Source of the DNA: an uncultured Verrucomicrobiota bacterium
GTDB lineage: Bacteria > Verrucomicrobiota > Verrucomicrobiia > CAZIPW01
Length of the DNA: 64,000 nucleotides
Reading direction: 5' to 3'
Assembly: GCA_964541675.1 (NCBI GenBank)
Contig: CAZIPW010000001.1
Coordinates: 67,493-131,492, forward strand
This document shows positions 7,934 to 54,886 of the stretch, piece by piece. The translations under genes and the position numbers were made by a program. Every line of letters starts with the position of its first letter. The stretch's first letter is position 1. The notes below the pieces were generated by a model. It had not been told where the DNA came from. It saw only the letters and a program-made list of their open reading frames with translations, and searched no databases.

Positions 7934-8980
7934 TCAAACCGCATCCTCTGGTGCTGCCGGCTCCTTTTCGATTATTGGGAGTTGGATGTTGGCCACAAGC
8001 TGCCCATAATTTGGATCTATGGCAGCCATTCGCTTCTCAAGCGGCGGATGGGTGGCCATCAGGTCTATCCCATTCATCCCCGATGTGGCGAAGAAGAAAT
8101 GTGCCAACCCCGCGGCGTGATGATGTTCGATCTGCGATCCGGCTTGTATTTTGGCCAGCGCCATGACCATGGCCTGCGGATTTCGGGTGAATTGAACCGA
8201 CGAGGCGTCCGCCAGAAATTCCCGTTGGCGGCTGATGAGTGCCTGGATGACCCGGCCGAAGAAGAACCCCACCGATCCGATCACAAGGAGCGCAAAACCA
8301 AAGATCATGAAGGCCACGGCCCCGCGCCGACGATCGGAAGAACCACCTCCGCTGGCGCTGTTTAGCGCAAACCGTCCCATGATCGAGACCAGAAAAAGCC
8401 CCCATATCCAGCCTGCCAGCTGAATGTTGAGTTTGCAGTCGCCGTTGAGCAGGTGGCTGAACTCGTGCCCGATGACGGCCTGCAGCTCCTCGCGGTTGAG
8501 ATAATTGAGGGTGCCCCGCGTGACGACCACGACGGCGTCCCTGGGAGAAATGGCCGCGGCAAAGGCATTGATTTCGGGTTCGTCGTCAAGAACTCCGACC
8601 TGGGGAACAGAGTATCCGGAGGCGAGGGACATCTCTTCCACCACGTTGAGAAGTATCCTCTCTTGTTCATCCTGCGTGTTGCGGTCTATGGCGCGCGCGC
8701 CCACGCTTTGGGCCACGGAAAGCCCGCCGCCGGAGAGTTCGGCGACTTTAAAAAAGGTCCCGCCCAAAATGACGGCCACTGTCCCGCCCACACACCAGAG
8801 GAAGGTGGCCAGGTCAAAGCTGTCAATGGGAGCGCGATACCAAAGGGGGCTGTCGTAATGCATGGCCATGGTATAGGCCGCGTAGACGCCCAGAGCGGTG
8901 AGAACGACAGCCAGGACAAAGAGGATAATGGCGATCCCGGTTCTTTGTTTGGCTTGTTCTTGTGCTCCGAAAAAATCCAT
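7934..8980 (-). CDS. htpX: M48-family zinc metalloprotease (HtpX-like), membrane
   Basis: HExxH motif (GHEFSHL), N-terminal TM helices, periplasmic-facing peptidase domain. Adjacent to lemA, as commonly seen. Confidence 0.75.
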   Translation of the reverse strand: MDFFGAQEQAKQRTGIAIILFVLAVVLTALGVYAAYTMAMHYDSPLWYRAPIDSFDLATFLWCVGGTVAVILGGTFFKVAELSGGGLSVAQSVGARAIDRNTQDEQERILLNVVEEMSLASGYSVPQVGVLDDEPEINAFAAAISPRDAVVVVTRGTLNYLNREELQAVIGHEFSHLLNGDCKLNIQLAGWIWGLFLVSIMGRFALNSASGGGSSDRRRGAVAFMIFGFALLVIGSVGFFFGRVIQALISRQREFLADASSVQFTRNPQAMVMALAKIQAGSQIEHHHAAGLAHFFFATSGMNGIDLMATHPPLEKRMAAIDPNYGQLVANIQLPIIEKEPAAPEDAV

Positions 8981-36575: not shown

Positions 36576-36579
36576 AAAA

Positions 36580-37662
36580 TCACCAGCCCATCTCCTTGTT
36601 GAGATCCGCAAACTCCGGGTCGGGGACAATCTGTCCATCTTTAAATTCTGTCATCCGGTCTCCGATTTTAAGGAGTCTATCGGCCCCAGGCGTTATGTAT
36701 CCTGACGCCCCCTGCCAGGGCTGTAGTTTCCCCATCCGGGTCATGAATTCCTGTGCGGAGGGTTTCCCGTCAAAGCCCTCACAGCTTTTGATAATGGCCT
36801 CCATCTGGTCGTAGCCAATGGCGCTTATGGCAACGGGTTTATGATGAAACCGCTTCTCAAAGCGTTCCGCGAAATCAGGGGTCATGTTGTTAACGCATAC
36901 AAAGCGGATTCCCTCCGCCCGTTGGCGATCATGGATGTCTTCCAGGTATCCCGATAGCTTGCAAGTCAGCCCAAGTTCTTTGGCCTGTCGCAGGATAATC
37001 TCAGATTCAGGCAGTACCGCCCAGATTGCAAGGGCGTCAGGTTTTTGCCCGTTGATCTTTGTCAGCAGGGTGCGAAAGTCGCGCACAGGCGCGTTGAATT
37101 TCACGTAGGCTACCAACTGCATCTGTGGGTCTTTTTTGATGGTCTCCCGAAGATGTTCCACCACGGGCGTCCAGTCGGCCAGGTTGGCCTGGATGACGGC
37201 GATCCTATGCGCCCCCATTCTTTTGAACAGGCGCAGTTGAAGGTCCGCAAAATCATCGCTGGGGGAAGTCAGAGTGGCGGTATAATGATTTTTGGTTACC
37301 TGTTCAAGGTTCCAGGTGTTGGCAAAGTGTACGATGTGCTTTTGTTCCGCCAGGGGGCATATGGCATTGGCTTCCATAGTCCACATGGAAACAATGATAT
37401 CCACGTGGTCGATGTCGATGAGCTTCTTGGCGGCCAGAAAGGAACGGCTGGGAATGAACTCGCCATCCTCATAGATAACCGCGTAGGTGTGTTTTGTATG
37501 CGCGTGCTCTTCCACGCAGAGCGTCATGCCTTCTTTCTTTGCGTTTCCGGCCCAGTCGTATTCCCCGCTTAGTGGCAGCACAGCCCCGATCTTGATGACA
37601 TCGGCCTGGGCGGCGCAAAATATGCCCATCGTTGCGATTAATGTTGCGAATGGTATCTTCAT
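36580..37662 (-). CDS. LivK-like periplasmic solute-binding protein, array copy 2
   Basis: MKIPFATLIATMGIFCAAQADVIKIGAVLPLSGEYDWAGNAKKEG...DLNKEMGW. It lies 4 nt from copy 1. Confidence 0.6.
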   Translation of the reverse strand: MKIPFATLIATMGIFCAAQADVIKIGAVLPLSGEYDWAGNAKKEGMTLCVEEHAHTKHTYAVIYEDGEFIPSRSFLAAKKLIDIDHVDIIVSMWTMEANAICPLAEQKHIVHFANTWNLEQVTKNHYTATLTSPSDDFADLQLRLFKRMGAHRIAVIQANLADWTPVVEHLRETIKKDPQMQLVAYVKFNAPVRDFRTLLTKINGQKPDALAIWAVLPESEIILRQAKELGLTCKLSGYLEDIHDRQRAEGIRFVCVNNMTPDFAERFEKRFHHKPVAISAIGYDQMEAIIKSCEGFDGKPSAQEFMTRMGKLQPWQGASGYITPGADRLLKIGDRMTEFKDGQIVPDPEFADLNKEMGW

Positions 37663-37666
37663 AAAT

Positions 37667-38749
37667 TTACCAGCCCATCTCCTTGTTCAAATCTTCAAAT
37701 AATGGATCGGGGACCATCTGTCCGTTCTCGTACTTCACGTATTTGAAAGCCTGGGCAATCATGCGATCGGGACGGGGTGCGCAGATTCCGGAAGCCCCGA
37801 CCCACGGCGGCAGGTGCGTGGCTTTGTCTATCAGCGCCAGCCCGTCTGGCTTATGGTCAAAACTTTCGTAGACCTTGATAAGGGCCTGCATCTGGTCGTA
37901 GCCCAAGTTGACCCCATAGGCGGGCTCCTTGTGAAAGCGTTCTTTGTAGGCGGCCACCCAGGCTCCCGCGGGATTTGTCGCGCAGAAGAAATGCATTCCT
38001 TCGCCGAGTTTCTTCTCGTTGAGATCCTCGTAGTAGCCGGAGATCCGGTATTTCATCCCCAACTCGCGTGACTGCCGCAGGATGATCTCCGATTCCGGCA
38101 GAAGGGACCATACGACAAGGATGTCTGGACGCTCCTCATTGATCTTGGCCAGCATGGTGCGGAAATCCCGGGTCGGAGAGATGAATTTCTCGTTGGCAAC
38201 AATCTCCAGGGAGGGGTCTTTCCTGATCTCAGCGAGTAGATAAGGGATGGCGTACATCCAGTCAGCGGAGTATTGCCACAGAATCGCCACGCGTTTGCAG
38301 CGCAGGCGTTCTATAATTTTGGTCTGCATGGCCGCCTGAACGTCGCAGGGCTGGGAAATCTTGAATGTATATTTGTGCTTGGGCAGATCGTTGAGATTGT
38401 AATCCTGCGCGAAGTTCGGGATCTTTTTGGCGTCGGCTATGGGCTCCACCGCGGAGAGCTCCACGCTCCAAAGGCTGGTCAGTATATCCACCCTGTCAAT
38501 GTTGATCAGCTTTTGCGCTGCCAGGGACGTTCTTCCCGGGACGAATCCCGTGTCTTCGTATATGACCTTATACTGGTGCTTGGTTTTACCTTCCGCCTCG
38601 GAAAGCGCCATCTGCATACCCTCCTGATTGGCCTTGCCGACAAAGTCGTACTCGCCACTTAGTGGCAAGAGGGCTCCGATCTTGATGACGTCGGCCTGGG
38701 CGGCGCATAGCGCCAGGGTCGCAATGAGTAACGTGAGCGTTCTTTTCAT
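37667..38749 (-). CDS. LivK-like periplasmic solute-binding protein, array copy 3
   Basis: MKRTLTLLIATLALCAAQADVIKIGALLPLSGEYDFVGKANQEG...DLNKEMGW. Confidence 0.6.
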   Translation of the reverse strand: MKRTLTLLIATLALCAAQADVIKIGALLPLSGEYDFVGKANQEGMQMALSEAEGKTKHQYKVIYEDTGFVPGRTSLAAQKLINIDRVDILTSLWSVELSAVEPIADAKKIPNFAQDYNLNDLPKHKYTFKISQPCDVQAAMQTKIIERLRCKRVAILWQYSADWMYAIPYLLAEIRKDPSLEIVANEKFISPTRDFRTMLAKINEERPDILVVWSLLPESEIILRQSRELGMKYRISGYYEDLNEKKLGEGMHFFCATNPAGAWVAAYKERFHKEPAYGVNLGYDQMQALIKVYESFDHKPDGLALIDKATHLPPWVGASGICAPRPDRMIAQAFKYVKYENGQMVPDPLFEDLNKEMGW

Positions 38750-51162: not shown

Positions 51163-52464
51163 CTAACCGCGCAATCCCTCAATCAGCTTCTCCAGAGGCA
51201 GCTCGATCTCTTTTCCCGTGGTCAGCTCTTTGACCTTGCAGATATTATTCGAGAGTTCGTCATCTCCCAGGATAAGAACTTTCCGGGCTCCGGCCTTGTC
51301 GGCGGCCTTCATCTGTTTGCCAAACCCCAGGGACTTAAGCGAGATTTCCACCGAGAAACCCGCGTCGCGCAGTTTTGGCAGCAGCTCCAGCGCCTTCGCG
51401 CGTGTGGTCGGGCTGGTATAGGCCAGGTACAAGTCGCAGGCGTCGACAAACTTGGGCAGAAGACTGCGTTCCGCCAGCGGTACCAGCAGCGTGACATCGC
51501 TCATCCCTATGCCCACGGCGGGCATATCGGGCCCACCCAGTTTCTTGACGAGGTCGTTGAATCTTCCTCCGCCTGCAAGAGCCCTTCCCGTGAGCCCCCC
51601 CTGGTCATCCTTCTCGAACACTTCAAAGACAAATCCCGTGTAGTAGGCCAGGCCGCGAACGATGCTAAGATCAACACCGATGTAATCGGAGAGCCCCATC
51701 GTTGCCAGATCGGCCAGCAGTGCCTTCCAGTTGTCGAGGCGTGCGGTCAGAGATTCGGAGTTCTTTCCCTCCAAAAGCTTTTCCAGCGCATCTAGCGATT
51801 TGATTTCGAGCATACCTTTGACAGTAACGGTAAGCCCGGGCTTAATGGCCTCCAGTTTTTTCTTTATTTCGGCAGGATCCTCACGTTCCCATTTGTCGAT
51901 GGTCTGCAGGACGATCATGGCGTTTTCCAGAGAGATCCCAAGGGTAAACAGTAGCTCCAGCCACAGGGTGCGGTCACTCAGACGCACCACGAAATCTTTT
52001 TGTGTTAGTCCAAACGCGCGGAAGATATCAATGGCAAACGAGATGATCTCAACCTCGGCGGTAGTGCCGGGCTCATCAAAGATGTCGGCGTTGAGTTGGT
52101 AGAACTCCCTGCCGCGCCCTTTTTGCATACGCTCGTAGCGGAAGCATTGGGGTATACTAAACCACCGGATCGGACGCTTGAGACTGGCAGCCCTGGCGCC
52201 TATCATAACTGCCGCATAGGGCGTTATTTCGGCTGGAAGAGTCACCTCCCGGTCTCCCTTATCCTTAAAGTTGAATAGCTGGCCGACGATCTCCGGTCCG
52301 GATTTGACGGTGAAGAGTTCTGTGGGTTGCAAAGTGGGGACGACATATTCCACGAAGTTATGAGCACGGCAGACCTGCCTCCATTTGGCGAAGATGAAGT
52401 TGCGTACCTGGCACTCTTCAGGGTAAAAGTCCCGGAAGCCGGGGAGGGGATCGAAGTTTGGCAT
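51163..52464 (-). CDS. hisS: histidine--tRNA ligase
   Basis: Class II aminoacyl-tRNA synthetase motifs (MPNFDPLPGFRDFYPEE; the LRYDLTVP-type signature appears as VTLPAEITPY) and a C-terminal anticodon-binding domain. Confidence 0.9.
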   Translation of the reverse strand: MPNFDPLPGFRDFYPEECQVRNFIFAKWRQVCRAHNFVEYVVPTLQPTELFTVKSGPEIVGQLFNFKDKGDREVTLPAEITPYAAVMIGARAASLKRPIRWFSIPQCFRYERMQKGRGREFYQLNADIFDEPGTTAEVEIISFAIDIFRAFGLTQKDFVVRLSDRTLWLELLFTLGISLENAMIVLQTIDKWEREDPAEIKKKLEAIKPGLTVTVKGMLEIKSLDALEKLLEGKNSESLTARLDNWKALLADLATMGLSDYIGVDLSIVRGLAYYTGFVFEVFEKDDQGGLTGRALAGGGRFNDLVKKLGGPDMPAVGIGMSDVTLLVPLAERSLLPKFVDACDLYLAYTSPTTRAKALELLPKLRDAGFSVEISLKSLGFGKQMKAADKAGARKVLILGDDELSNNICKVKELTTGKEIELPLEKLIEGLRG

Positions 52465-52585
52465 GGAAGGAGTCTAGTTCATTTAGCACTTTCTTTCAAG
52501 ACTCTGCGCACGATTCTCTGTGACGGTGGGCAGTCCCATCTTCTTCAGTTCCTCGTCCGTAATGACCTTGATGTCTAGTATGATG

Positions 52586-53206
52586 TTATCTGTTTCCAAA
52601 TCCTATTCCCCTCGATCGCTGACTGGTGAGGCTCTGTCCATCCACGCAACGATTGCGAAGATGCACAATATCTTCCACAGGCTCATTCTGACCCAAGTTG
52701 CTATAGACGGATATGGCTATACTACTGCACTCAATATAGGCCGAACAGTGGTAACCATTGATCATCGCCAAAGGAACAAGACCGAGGCCTTTTTGAGAAG
52801 AAGCGTTGACCAACAGTGCTTTGGCTGCGTTTGGCCCTGCCACCAGAAGCGATTTCTGGGAGATTGCCATAAGGCTTGATCCAAGACCTGTGGCTGCCTG
52901 TGTGAGTGTGTCGGGAGAGCTGACCTCCAAGAGAACAATGGGCGGTTCTTCAAGGCGTGCGATCTCGGGAAAGTTGGAAATGTCTACTCTTCCGTAGATG
53001 TCAAGGCCATGCCGGCCATAAAACTCCACCGTCTGCCGGAGTTTTGGCGTTGGCTTTGGGCTGCCAGGGTCTTGTGTGGAGTCCGCGAGGACAATATTCC
53101 GATCATGCAATCTGCGGCGCAGGCATCGAATAGTCTGTAGGACCTGGGCGCAGGGAGCGTCCAGGGAGGTGGTAAGGATGACTTGGGAGAGAGAGGAATT
53201 TTTCAT
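52586..53206 (-). CDS. CoA-binding-domain-like protein (YccU/YneT-like Rossmann core plus ~60-aa C-terminal extension); function unknown
   Basis: The segment ISNFPEIARLEEPPIVLLEVSSPDTLTQAATGLGSSLMAISQ...AGPNAAKALLVNASSQKGLGLV aligns in pattern with the YccU CoA_binding_2 core (TLADVPEKVDMVDVF...AIAIGAKTLWMQ...AREAGLSVV). The call rests on weak similarity only. Confidence 0.4.
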   Translation of the reverse strand: MKNSSLSQVILTTSLDAPCAQVLQTIRCLRRRLHDRNIVLADSTQDPGSPKPTPKLRQTVEFYGRHGLDIYGRVDISNFPEIARLEEPPIVLLEVSSPDTLTQAATGLGSSLMAISQKSLLVAGPNAAKALLVNASSQKGLGLVPLAMINGYHCSAYIECSSIAISVYSNLGQNEPVEDIVHLRNRCVDGQSLTSQRSRGIGFGNR

Positions 53207-53222
53207 AAAGATATTTTTGGGG

Positions 53223-53254
53223 AAACAAAAAACCGCAGCGTTTTTGCTGCGGTT
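53223..53254 (-). terminator. intrinsic terminator (attenuator) in the leader of the 52586..53206 gene
   Basis: On the minus strand: AACCGCAGC-AAAAAC-GCUGCGGUU followed by UUUUUUGUUU. This is a 9-bp GC-rich stem plus U-tract, ending 17 nt before the ATG at 53206. Confidence 0.5.
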
Positions 53255-53272
53255 TGGAAAGACCTGGAATCG

Positions 53273-53344
53273 CTATGCGCGAGCACTCGGCCTTTGCAAA
53301 ACCGCAAAGGTCCAATGCCACCAGGCGCAGAGATTCATTAACAT
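53273..53344 (-). CDS. candidate Trp-rich leader peptide (23 aa: MLMNLCAWWHWTFAVLQRPSARA)
   Basis: An ATG lies 12 nt after a -10-like box. Codons 8-11 are UGG UGG CAU UGG. The stop codon is 18 nt before the terminator stem. The leader segment UUGCGGUUUU can pair with the 5' arm of the terminator (AAACCGCA). Confidence 0.35.
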   Translation of the reverse strand: MLMNLCAWWHWTFAVLQRPSARA

Positions 53345-53355
53345 AATGTTGATGA

Positions 53356-53385
53356 ATACTATCACACTATCCTGTAAGAAGTCAA
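53356..53385 (-). promoter_or_regulatory. sigma70-like promoter (TTGACT-18 nt-TAGTAT) driving the leader and the 52586..53206 gene
   Basis: The minus-strand sequence cTTGACTtcttacaggatagtgtgaTAGTATtcatcaacattATG shows the two boxes; their spacing was counted directly. Confidence 0.3.
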
Positions 53386-53424
53386 GAGGTTTGCAATTAA
53401 AACCCCGTTTGGTAGGATAAAGCC

Positions 53425-54258
53425 ATGTTGGACCTTAAAGAACTCCCCCAGATTGGCGCCACGCACGCCGCCCTGAAGGACTATCTGGCCTACCGCGACA
53501 ACCTGCATGGCAATCCGGAAAGGCTTCTGCCGATTGAGGGCCTGTGGGCGCATGAGGTGGCCATCAAGCAGCACGTGGAGATCCGCACGGCCTTCATCTG
53601 TCTGGAACTTCTCAAGAGCCTTGAGTATGAGAGCATGGCGCAGGCGGTGGCGCAGAAGGCGGGTAGGACTTTCATAGTCTCGGAGAAGGTTTTCGAGAAG
53701 ATCTCCGAGCGGGAGGGACCTTCGGGAGTTGCCAGTATCGTGAAGCCAGTCAACTTTTTTGAGAATGATTTTGGCCCGCTTTCCAAAGTCAAACGCATCG
53801 TTATCATGGACGCGGTCGAGATTCCGGGCAACGTGGGGACGATCCTGCGGGCTCTCGATGGGCTGGGGGAGAGCGCTCTCGTTCTGACCAATAGGCGCGT
53901 TAGACTGACCCATCCGAAAGTGGTGAAGGGGTCGTTGGGCGCTGTTTTCACCGTTCCTCTTATTACAGCCGGAGTGCCGGAGGTGCTTGCGTACCTTGCC
54001 CAGAACAAAATCCTGCTTTTTGCCGCCGATAGCAGTAATAAGGCAAAGGTCGTTGATTTTTCCGCGGCCAGTATTCCCGAAAAATTTGCGTTGGTCCTGG
54101 GCTCGGAGAAATACGGCATCCCGCAGGAGATCTATGACGCCAAACCGACTGGCATCAGGATCCCGATGTCGGGGGTCTGCGACTCGCTCAACGTTTCAAT
54201 TGCCGGTGCGATACTGCTCTACGGACTGGTGATGAGAGGGGAAACTAACTGCTCTTGA
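53425..54258 (+). CDS. TrmH/SpoU-family RNA methyltransferase (second copy in window)
   Basis: IVIMDAVEIPGNVGTILRALDGLG, IPMSGVCDSLNVSIAGAILLYGL, and an N-terminal substrate-binding extension. Confidence 0.7.
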   Translation: MLDLKELPQIGATHAALKDYLAYRDNLHGNPERLLPIEGLWAHEVAIKQHVEIRTAFICLELLKSLEYESMAQAVAQKAGRTFIVSEKVFEKISEREGPSGVASIVKPVNFFENDFGPLSKVKRIVIMDAVEIPGNVGTILRALDGLGESALVLTNRRVRLTHPKVVKGSLGAVFTVPLITAGVPEVLAYLAQNKILLFAADSSNKAKVVDFSAASIPEKFALVLGSEKYGIPQEIYDAKPTGIRIPMSGVCDSLNVSIAGAILLYGLVMRGETNCS

Positions 54259-54886
54259 TCAACCCCTGCTCCATCGCAAAACGCGTAAGGGAGGCCGCGT
54301 TGTGGAGATTCAGTTTACGCATCAGATTGGAGCGGTGATTGTCCGCCGTCTTGACGCTGATATTGAGCTTGGCGGCGATATCCTTGGTGGTATTTCCCAT
54401 CGCAATAAGCCGCAGTATCTCCAATTCGCGGCGGGTCAGATCCTGAATGGACGGCACGGCCTGCGCCGGAACCGCCAGCGCGTCATGGACGATCTTTGTC
54501 ACCTCCGGGCCGAAGTAGTTGCCGCCGTTGCCCACCGCCTGAATGGCGTTTTTGAGCTCCGAAAGCGGGGCCGTCTTCTCCACAAAACCATGCGCTCCCG
54601 CCTGCGTCATCTCGCGGACAAGCTGGGGGGAATAATAACCCGAGAAGGCCAGAACGCGCGTGGATGGCAAACCCTTGGAGATTCTGCGCATCAGCTCCAC
54701 CCCTCCGGTGTCGGGAAGCATAATGTCCAGCATAACCAGATCTGGCTTCTGCTCGGCGCAAAGCTTCCACGCCTCTTCGCCGCTGCCAACTTGGGCAATC
54801 ACGGAAAATGTCGGATCGGAATCGATCACCTGCGCGATCATCTCCCGAACAGCGGTCTGGTCTTCAACGATGACAACCGTTTTCAT
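54245..54886 (-). CDS. two-component response regulator, NarL/LuxR family (orphan)
   Basis: REC domain (VIVEDQTAVRE...DLVMLDIMLPDTGG) and a C-terminal LuxR-type HTH (LTRRELEILRLIAMGNTTKDIAAKLNISVKTADNHRSNLMRKL). Confidence 0.8.
   Translation of the reverse strand: MKTVVIVEDQTAVREMIAQVIDSDPTFSVIAQVGSGEEAWKLCAEQKPDLVMLDIMLPDTGGVELMRRISKGLPSTRVLAFSGYYSPQLVREMTQAGAHGFVEKTAPLSELKNAIQAVGNGGNYFGPEVTKIVHDALAVPAQAVPSIQDLTRRELEILRLIAMGNTTKDIAAKLNISVKTADNHRSNLMRKLNLHNAASLTRFAMEQGLIKSS

Follow-up and report, generated by a model that had tools for sequence, protein, structure and literature searches.

Background

In the trp attenuator of Escherichia coli (trpL; Rfam family RF00513), a short leader open reading frame (ORF) carries tandem Trp codons in the 5' strand of the first hairpin, the RNA can adopt mutually exclusive 1:2, 2:3 and 3:4 structures, and an intrinsic terminator lies just before the first gene. 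Here we describe a locus that is like trpL in each of these respects, found on the minus strand of a 64,000-nucleotide stretch of contig CAZIPW010000001.1 from an uncultured Verrucomicrobiota bacterium. We refer to the whole stretch as the window, and coordinates below are for the minus strand unless stated otherwise. At 53207-53385 lie a promoter-like site, a 23-codon mini-ORF with three Trp codons, a set of competing RNA structures and a terminator, followed by a 206-codon ORF (ORF206, 52586-53206) and then by hisS. We tentatively take this region to be a transcription attenuator that acts in cis from the 5' leader of ORF206, a lineage-specific orphan gene, and give that reading somewhat less than an even chance. 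The likeness to trpL includes scale: the Trp codons lie about 87 nt from the end of the U-tract in E. coli and about 100 nt from it here. Unlike trpL, the leader has no sequence or structure match to RF00513 and no Shine-Dalgarno sequence, it precedes an orphan gene rather than a trp gene, its host belongs to the Verrucomicrobiota, and it is not conserved in relatives.

Three other systems invite comparison. In Deinococcus deserti, which is rich in leaderless mRNAs, 14 putative attenuation leader peptides are encoded at the 5' ends of transcripts, and transcription starts at the AUG or 1 nt before it (PMC4007540). Pervasive leaderless mRNAs appear to be a shared trait, but the mini-ORF described here has an 11-nt spacing between the -10 box and the AUG (the norm in the window is 6-7), which predicts a 5' untranslated region (UTR) of 4-6 nt, and its target is neither a synthetase nor a biosynthetic gene, hisS having its own promoter. 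The bmrB-bmrCD system of Bacillus subtilis (PMC4191407) is an antibiotic-responsive, ribosome-mediated attenuator in which, as here, a leader ORF and a terminator/antiterminator pair precede a gene outside amino-acid biosynthesis, and in which stalling from any cause leads to read-through; ORF206 differs in having no transporter, ABC-F or methyltransferase domain. Finally, rnTrpL of Sinorhizobium meliloti is a trans-acting small RNA (sRNA) derived from an attenuator (PMC6614838). A terminated, structured leader RNA of about 125 nt could likewise act in trans at our locus, which would reconcile an attenuator with an sRNA, although we found no sequence relationship to rnTrpL.

Anatomy of the leader

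The leader promoter-like site (53356-53385) was located by a consensus scan and by reading the sequence. It consists of a -35 box TTGACT (53385-53380), an 18-nt spacer and a -10 box TAGTAT (53361-53356). A sigma70-like promoter of this form had been proposed in the original prediction, and both approaches recover it; in addition, a TG at 53364-53363 makes it an extended -10 promoter (TG-n-TAGTAT, 53364-53356). It closely resembles the type seen at the window's genes (TTGnnn, 16-18 nt, TAnnnT, extended TG) and stands back-to-back with the promoter of a TrmH-family methyltransferase gene (+ strand: TTGCAA 53391-96, TAGGAT 53413-18). On sequence grounds, transcription of the leader (5'-AACAUUAUG) is predicted to start near A53350/A53349.

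The intrinsic terminator (53223-53255), detected by a terminator scan, by folding and by a repeat finder (I9), has a perfect 10-bp stem AAACCGCAGC/GCUGCGGUUU (53255-53230; the 3' arm is also written GCTGCGGTTT), a 6-nt loop and a U-tract UUUUUUGUUU (T6-G-T3), with a stem-loop free energy (dG) of -16.3 kcal/mol. It is clearly the best among 85 terminator-like matches in 60 kb, in agreement with the earlier description of a strong terminator with a U-tract just before the ATG of ORF206. The promoter scan and the terminator scan both pick exactly the leader's own sites. The spacings first given (18 nt from the mini-ORF stop codon to the terminator, 17 nt from the terminator to the ATG) were about right: we find that 17 nt separate the stop codon from the terminator stem, and 16 nt the U-tract from the ATG at 53206.

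The 144-nt leader folds better than shuffled sequences (z = -3.7), and its minimum-free-energy fold is one long imperfect hairpin plus the terminator, with the first ~14 nt unpaired. This long hairpin, hairpin 1 or the anti-antiterminator (53267-53336; folding and repeat finder, I3), has about 30 bp and a dG of -31.5 kcal/mol, far more stable than its counterpart in trpL. The mini-ORF spans it, and its 5' arm comprises codons 3-14, including all three Trp codons. A local hairpin CCUUUGCG/UGCAAAGG at 53310-53291 (dG -9.0), which had been noticed after the Trp codons, is indeed present and forms the tip of the longer imperfect hairpin 53336-53267.

The antiterminator (53247-53307; folding, duplex energies and repeat finder) joins 53307-53289 (UUGCGGUUUUGCAAAGGCC) to 53264-53247 (GGUCUUUCCAAACCGCAG) through 17 pairs, with -26.2 kcal/mol as a hairpin. 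It covers the 5' arm of the terminator and is mutually exclusive both with hairpin 1 and with the terminator. An alternative pairing of UUGCGGUUU with AAACCGCAG, involving the terminator 5' arm, had been pointed out before; it is real and, at 17 bp, larger than described, and the repeat finder recovers it independently (I6). 'Segment 2' of this leader, unlike that of trpL, spans its own apical hairpin. The two adjacent Trp codons, W8 and W9, lie within the only segment that is unique to the anti-antiterminator.

As a duplex, the antiterminator reaches -22.2 kcal/mol, compared with -12.8 +/- 2.5 in dinucleotide shuffles of the upstream 85 nt (p = 0.0015, or 0.15%), and of the window's 7520 natural 85-nt segments, 26 offer a duplex as good (0.35%, with segments that overlap the locus counted in). 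When pairing to the terminator 5' arm alone is scored, p = 0.07. The leader has the full anti-antiterminator/antiterminator/terminator anatomy of a trpL-type attenuator.

Over positions 1-60000 of the window, the 85 terminator-like matches compare with ~61 expected from shuffles; most are weak and lie inside genes, and canonical intrinsic terminators appear rare in the window. A second decent hairpin with a T-run (10 pairs) lies at 54987-54961 (-), just upstream of the promoter of a response-regulator gene (TTGACT-18-TACAAT, 54924-54895, with the -10 box ending 8 nt before the ATG at 54886), and may terminate transcription arriving from the EF-P side.

The mini-ORF and modeled ribosome stalling

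The mini-ORF (53273-53344; 23 codons plus stop), identified from the sequence and the ORF list, runs from an ATG at 53344 to a TAG at 53275-53273 and encodes MLMNLCAWWHWTFAVLQRPSARA. Its three Trp codons among four, as reported at the outset, are present at 53323-21 (W8), 53320-18 (W9) and 53314-12 (W11), reading UGG UGG CAU UGG over 53323-53312. The product has a hydrophobic aromatic stretch, MLMNLCAWWHWTFAVL (~15 residues), followed by a basic tail, QRPSARA. We estimated how often such an ORF arises by chance in dinucleotide shuffles of the transcript, counting ORFs of at least 15 codons with an ATG within the first 15 nt and a stop before the terminator. Such an ORF appears in 10% of shuffles, one with at least two TGG codons in 1%, and one with any amino acid at three of four positions in 1.6%.

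Folding the leader under constraints, a check suggested with the original prediction, yielded the three mutually exclusive structures but was uninformative when applied at equilibrium to the full-length RNA. With a 28-nt ribosome block in place, the terminator was retained in almost all states, and E. coli trpL, run as a positive control with its sequence from the literature, likewise kept its terminator. Because the control behaves alike, we rejected equilibrium folding as a test. We used instead a nascent-transcript model, in which the RNA is truncated before the terminator 3' arm and the ribosome footprint is blocked, validated on E. coli trpL. The model reproduces trpL, giving the antiterminator only with the A site at Trp11/Arg12.

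In the same footprint model, stalling at W8 or W9 would favor the antiterminator in our leader as well. The probability of the antiterminator, P(antiterminator), is 0.06 in the free RNA. It climbs to ~0.8 while codons 4-9, of which W8 and W9 come last, occupy the A site (0.82 at W8 and 0.66-0.82 at W9). It drops once His10 is reached, amounts to 0-0.43 at W11 and stays at 0 over codons 12-20. In the model, then, the tandem W8-W9 would be well placed, at the 3' edge of the permissive range, and the third Trp codon would not.

Proposed mechanism

Together, the anatomy and the position of W8-W9 agree well with a trpL-type attenuator and are probably no accident. The trpL-type layout originally proposed stands in part: the anti-antiterminator, the antiterminator, the terminator and the placement of W8 and W9 agree with it, while the translation signals, the placement of W11 and the expected link of the target to an amino acid do not.

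From anatomy and modeling we infer the following course of events, including the transcription start, translation of the mini-ORF, actual termination and read-through, Trp as the signal, and the expression and function of ORF206. The strong extended -10 promoter would start the RNA near 53350. By default the RNA would fold into the long hairpin 53336-53267, leaving the terminator at 53255-53223 free, and most transcripts would end at ~125 nt. If the 5' arm of hairpin 1 were occupied, 53307-53289 would pair with 53264-53247, the 5' arm of the terminator would be sequestered, and transcription would read through into ORF206. The most concrete occupier would be a ribosome on the mini-ORF pausing at W8-W9, in which case read-through would report Trp-tRNA charging, as in trpL. 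A ribosome past codon 11 or at the stop codon would block the strands of the antiterminator and so cause termination.

Our confidence falls as the proposal becomes more specific. Whether some cis-acting attenuator switch exists at this locus we regard as evenly balanced. That the attenuator is driven by a ribosome is possible, with the doubts outweighing the support, and that the ribosome senses Trp in particular is unlikely, if still worth considering. The most elaborate version combines a Trp-tRNA-sensing attenuator with a Trp-free orphan gene in a 0.9-kb lineage-specific cassette between hisS and the TrmH-family methyltransferase gene, the mini-ORF being translated from a very short 5' UTR that lacks a Shine-Dalgarno sequence, and it makes ORF206 a new Trp-starvation response protein; this we consider speculative and decidedly unlikely.

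We found no report of leader-peptide Trp-tRNA-sensing attenuators in Verrucomicrobiota, although we made no systematic search of the literature. If the proposal were true, leader-peptide attenuation would extend to an uncultured lineage of Verrucomicrobiota with apparently largely leaderless mRNAs, an amino-acid-sensing leader would be attached to a gene outside biosynthesis, and an orphan protein would be marked as part of the response to Trp starvation, which would provide a handle on its function. The class of mechanism has long been known, so the interest is modest rather than high; what is unusual is the orphan target and the phylum.

The downstream gene and the hisS-TrmH spacer

ORF206 was taken from the ORF list and examined by database searches. 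Public gene callers place its start at 53206, 53110 (TTG) or 53029 (GTG), giving products of 206, 174 or 147 aa. It had been labeled a CoA-binding-domain protein; because it matches no family, with no significant hit in Pfam, NCBIfam, PADLOC, PHROGs or PDB, that label is unsupported. A resemblance to the Ig-like (Big_5) repeats of a 4280-aa protein was rejected, the identity being 26% and the score inflated by six repeats. The single-sequence AlphaFold model has a predicted local distance difference test (pLDDT) value of 37 and is unusable, so no fold search was made. The open frame is longer than expected by chance (228 codons versus 110 +/- 25, p = 0.0013), and the GC content of its third codon positions (GC3) is 0.54, compared with 0.67 for the genes of the window. 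ORF206 lacks a strong promoter of its own (the best candidate scores 5 of 12). It contains no Trp (P = 0.046), which is the only hint of a Trp link. A 13-nt inverted repeat, 85% complementary (GTTATCTGTTTCC / GGAAACAAAAAAC; 52585-52597 and 53221-53233), brackets ORF206, running from its stop codon to just past the U-tract of the terminator; it may be due to chance.

The leader and ORF206 together occupy the spacer between hisS and TrmH, which measures 960 nt (52465-53424) and which we compared with that of relatives. GC content is 0.43-0.50 across the segment, with a drop to 0.425 in the leader. The nearest relative that shares the RNase R-hisS/TrmH-response-regulator synteny (TrmH 78% and hisS 62% identical) has a spacer of only 48 nt (L167 2178-2225 / L168 372-419), and the difference reflects either an insertion here or a deletion in the relative. 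The hisS and TrmH promoters of that relative must overlap inside the 48 nt. Other relatives carry different genes upstream of TrmH.

To look for conservation, we scanned genome and metagenome collections with hisS, ran a protein search with TrmH and followed it into nine contigs, searched 173 loci with the spacer by blastn and tblastn, and built a covariance model of the leader. Across these searches, every copy of the cassette that turned up was identical. Neither blastn nor tblastn gave a DNA or protein match to the spacer in the 173 fetched loci, apart from identical copies. One covariance-model match, at 8189-8314 (18 bits), was discarded as spurious because it falls within the gene for an M48-type peptidase and lacks a terminator. 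A mobile or phage origin was likewise rejected, with no match among viral contigs or plasmids and no convincing terminal repeats. Judging by the low GC content of the leader and the atypical codon usage, the cassette looks lineage-specific and possibly acquired. The TrmH search also returned L174 (JGI Ga0215011_10138941), a 1131-nt contig with a 241-aa product that has HMGL-like and SpoU Pfam matches; only TrmH residues 119-271 align (84% identity), the contig gives no upstream information, and chimeric assembly or fusion of two genes is the probable explanation.

Evidence against attenuation

A number of observations weigh against an attenuator at this locus. The element was first picked out by eye, and every statistic was calculated afterwards. 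A search of the whole 64-kb window with Rfam at gathering thresholds gave no match, the Trp leader RF00513 included; at permissive settings (E up to 10), 53100-53500 gave only terminator-like chance matches. Within the stalling model, W11 falls outside the permissive range, and P(antiterminator) for a ribosome at the stop codon ranges from 0.01 to 0.55, varying with the assumed footprint.

Signals for translating the mini-ORF are a second difficulty. There is no Shine-Dalgarno motif before either of its in-frame AUGs (53344 and 53338), and 11 nt separate the -10 box from its ATG. At promoter-proximal genes of the window, under a stricter promoter definition, this spacing is 6 nt in 6 cases and 7 nt in 1, and spacings of 8-14 nt do not occur. 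Because the motif is absent and the 11-nt spacing predicts a 5' UTR of 4-6 nt, the mini-ORF is neither leaderless nor Shine-Dalgarno-led; judged by sequence signals, it has neither of the two marks of efficient translation, a Shine-Dalgarno sequence or a true leaderless 5' AUG. The claim that its Trp cluster is unlikely by chance holds for the shuffled transcripts, in which an ORF with at least two TGG codons is rare, but TGG runs as such are not rare in the window: its six frames contain 7 runs with three TGG in four codons, versus 1.4 +/- 1.2 in shuffles, and a G-rich 5' hairpin arm can yield TGG-rich runs without any coding role.

The gene and its distribution raise further doubts. Against 5.8 billion proteins, ORF206 found only itself (called as 174 or 147 aa), and against 1.84 billion representatives it found itself and one doubtful repeat match. 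With neither a family nor homologues, ORF206 shows no functional tie to the amino acid that would be sensed. Its codon score, 0.012 per codon versus 0.28 +/- 0.105 for the genes of the window, is at the bottom of the range of real genes. The nearest syntenic relative has no ORF206, leader or terminator in its hisS-TrmH spacer, and the covariance model, run over the window and 98 loci of relatives, found no second copy of the leader. The TrmH protein is identical in 11 contigs, and the spacer DNA is 100% identical in each of the four contigs compared (L081, L162, L163 and L175). With a single invariant sequence, anatomy and folding statistics have to carry the whole case.

Alternative explanations

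The strongest competitor is a stand-alone gene for a trans-acting sRNA of ~125 nt, with its own promoter, an unpaired A/U-rich 5' end as a candidate seed, a long hairpin and a terminator, in which the mini-ORF and its Trp codons are a by-product of the G-rich hairpin arm and ORF206 is expressed by leak-through only, or never. We consider this doubtful, yet nearly as likely as the attenuator. The promoter and the window's best terminator bound a short transcript in a divergent intergenic region, and the stable fold leaves the first ~14 nt free; promoter, stable structure, U-tailed terminator and intergenic position are all present, but a terminated attenuator RNA has them too, so they do not discriminate. 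Also in favor of an sRNA is the mini-ORF, which lacks a Shine-Dalgarno sequence, has a -10-to-AUG spacing that is not leaderless, has a poor codon score (-0.49 per codon) and has a length that arises readily in shuffles (the 10% given above). An origin as an attenuator would be compatible with this explanation, since liberated attenuator RNAs can act in trans, for which rnTrpL is a precedent (PMC6614838). What a stand-alone sRNA leaves unexplained is the 17-bp pairing over the 5' arm of the terminator (p ~0.002-0.003) and the position of a terminator ~16 nt before an ORF without a strong promoter of its own. Nor does the RNA belong to an Rfam family; there was no homologue or second copy in the loci, viral contigs or plasmids searched, and no target can be named.

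Alternatively, the attenuator may be genuine and be triggered by something other than a ribosome, such as an RNA-binding protein, an sRNA, a tRNA or a ligand, bound to the UGG/GGA-rich 5' arm of hairpin 1 (53336-53308), with the mini-ORF there by coincidence. The three-structure architecture and its statistics would be the same, and the missing signals for translation initiation favor a trigger that is independent of translation. We nevertheless think this improbable, given that the arm contains no known binding motif and that coincidence leaves unexplained a Trp-cluster ORF spanning exactly hairpin 1 (1-1.6% in shuffles). Of the specific candidates, a TRAP-like leader is not supported, as the region has just two (G/U)AG triplets, and Rfam at E up to 10 gives no T-box, riboswitch or other cis-regulatory family. 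The ~95 nt before the terminator are also short for a T-box, and that reading finds no support without an Rfam match.

A third possibility is that the 0.9-kb segment is a relic, acquired or decaying, whose terminator and hairpin are leftovers (for example, of the 3' end of a lost gene) that insulate divergent promoters, while ORF206 is dying or was never functional. The absence of the segment from the nearest syntenic relative, with its 48-nt spacer, fits this account, as do the atypical composition and codon usage (GC, GC3 and codon score as given above) and an orphan ORF on whose start gene callers disagree. Set against these, the leader promoter closely matches the type of the window's genes, the frame of ORF206 is significantly long, the switch-like pairing is non-random, and neither mobile-element genes nor clear terminal repeats flank the segment. 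On balance we judge a relic quite improbable.

In type III toxin-antitoxin (toxIN-like) loci, a promoter is followed by RNA antitoxin repeats, a terminator and a toxin gene of ~170 aa. Our locus is similar in having a promoter, a non-coding RNA, a terminator that limits read-through and a gene of ~150-200 aa in a lineage-specific cassette; unlike them, it has no tandem RNA repeats (none in 52380-53480), and ORF206, without a Pfam match, fits no ToxN, CptN, TenpN or PADLOC model, so we rejected this assignment. A gene for a small membrane peptide, type I toxin-like or other, with a functional 23-aa product on a short structured mRNA that ends at a strong terminator, is very improbable: the hydrophobic stretch with its positively charged tail is suggestive, but it is short for a membrane span, the mini-ORF has no translation signals, PADLOC gives no match and there is no homologue, and no antisense or divergent antitoxin promoter was found on the + strand across 53200-53350.

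hisS, leaderless geometry and other features of the window

The original prediction had also noted hisS downstream of the leader. We rejected hisS as a target: it has its own promoter-like site (52471-52499; promoter scan), TTGAAA, 17 nt and TAGACT, with 6 nt between the end of the -10 box and the ATG of hisS at 52464, a leaderless-type geometry. The same geometry is found at hisS in the syntenic relative (L167: TTGCCC-17-TAAACT-6-ATG), and because hisS has its own promoter and the relative keeps its geometry, hisS can do without the leader. The hisS of the source genome is at most 46% identical to the hisS of Chthoniobacterales metagenome-assembled genomes.

This geometry is pervasive in the window. 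TTGnnn, 16-18 nt and TAnnnT with the -10 box ending 6-7 nt before the start occurs at 16 of 45 long ORFs (6 nt in 10 cases, 7 nt in 5), against a background of 2 in 745 internal start-like codons. Examples are found at 52499-52464 (hisS), 53391-53425 (TrmH), 24583-24548, 15906, 34478, 62308 and 42013. Only 17 of 48 ORFs in the window have a Shine-Dalgarno-like motif. These sequence patterns suggest that a large share of mRNAs may be leaderless in this Verrucomicrobiota lineage.

A tRNA scan of the window found none. Two adjacent ORFs of 361 codons each, 36579-37662 and 37666-38749 (-), have near-identical upstream sequence, ...AACAAGGAGATGGG(C/T)TGGTAAATTT-ATG. They are an apparent tandem gene duplication and, unlike most genes of the window, have a clear Shine-Dalgarno sequence.

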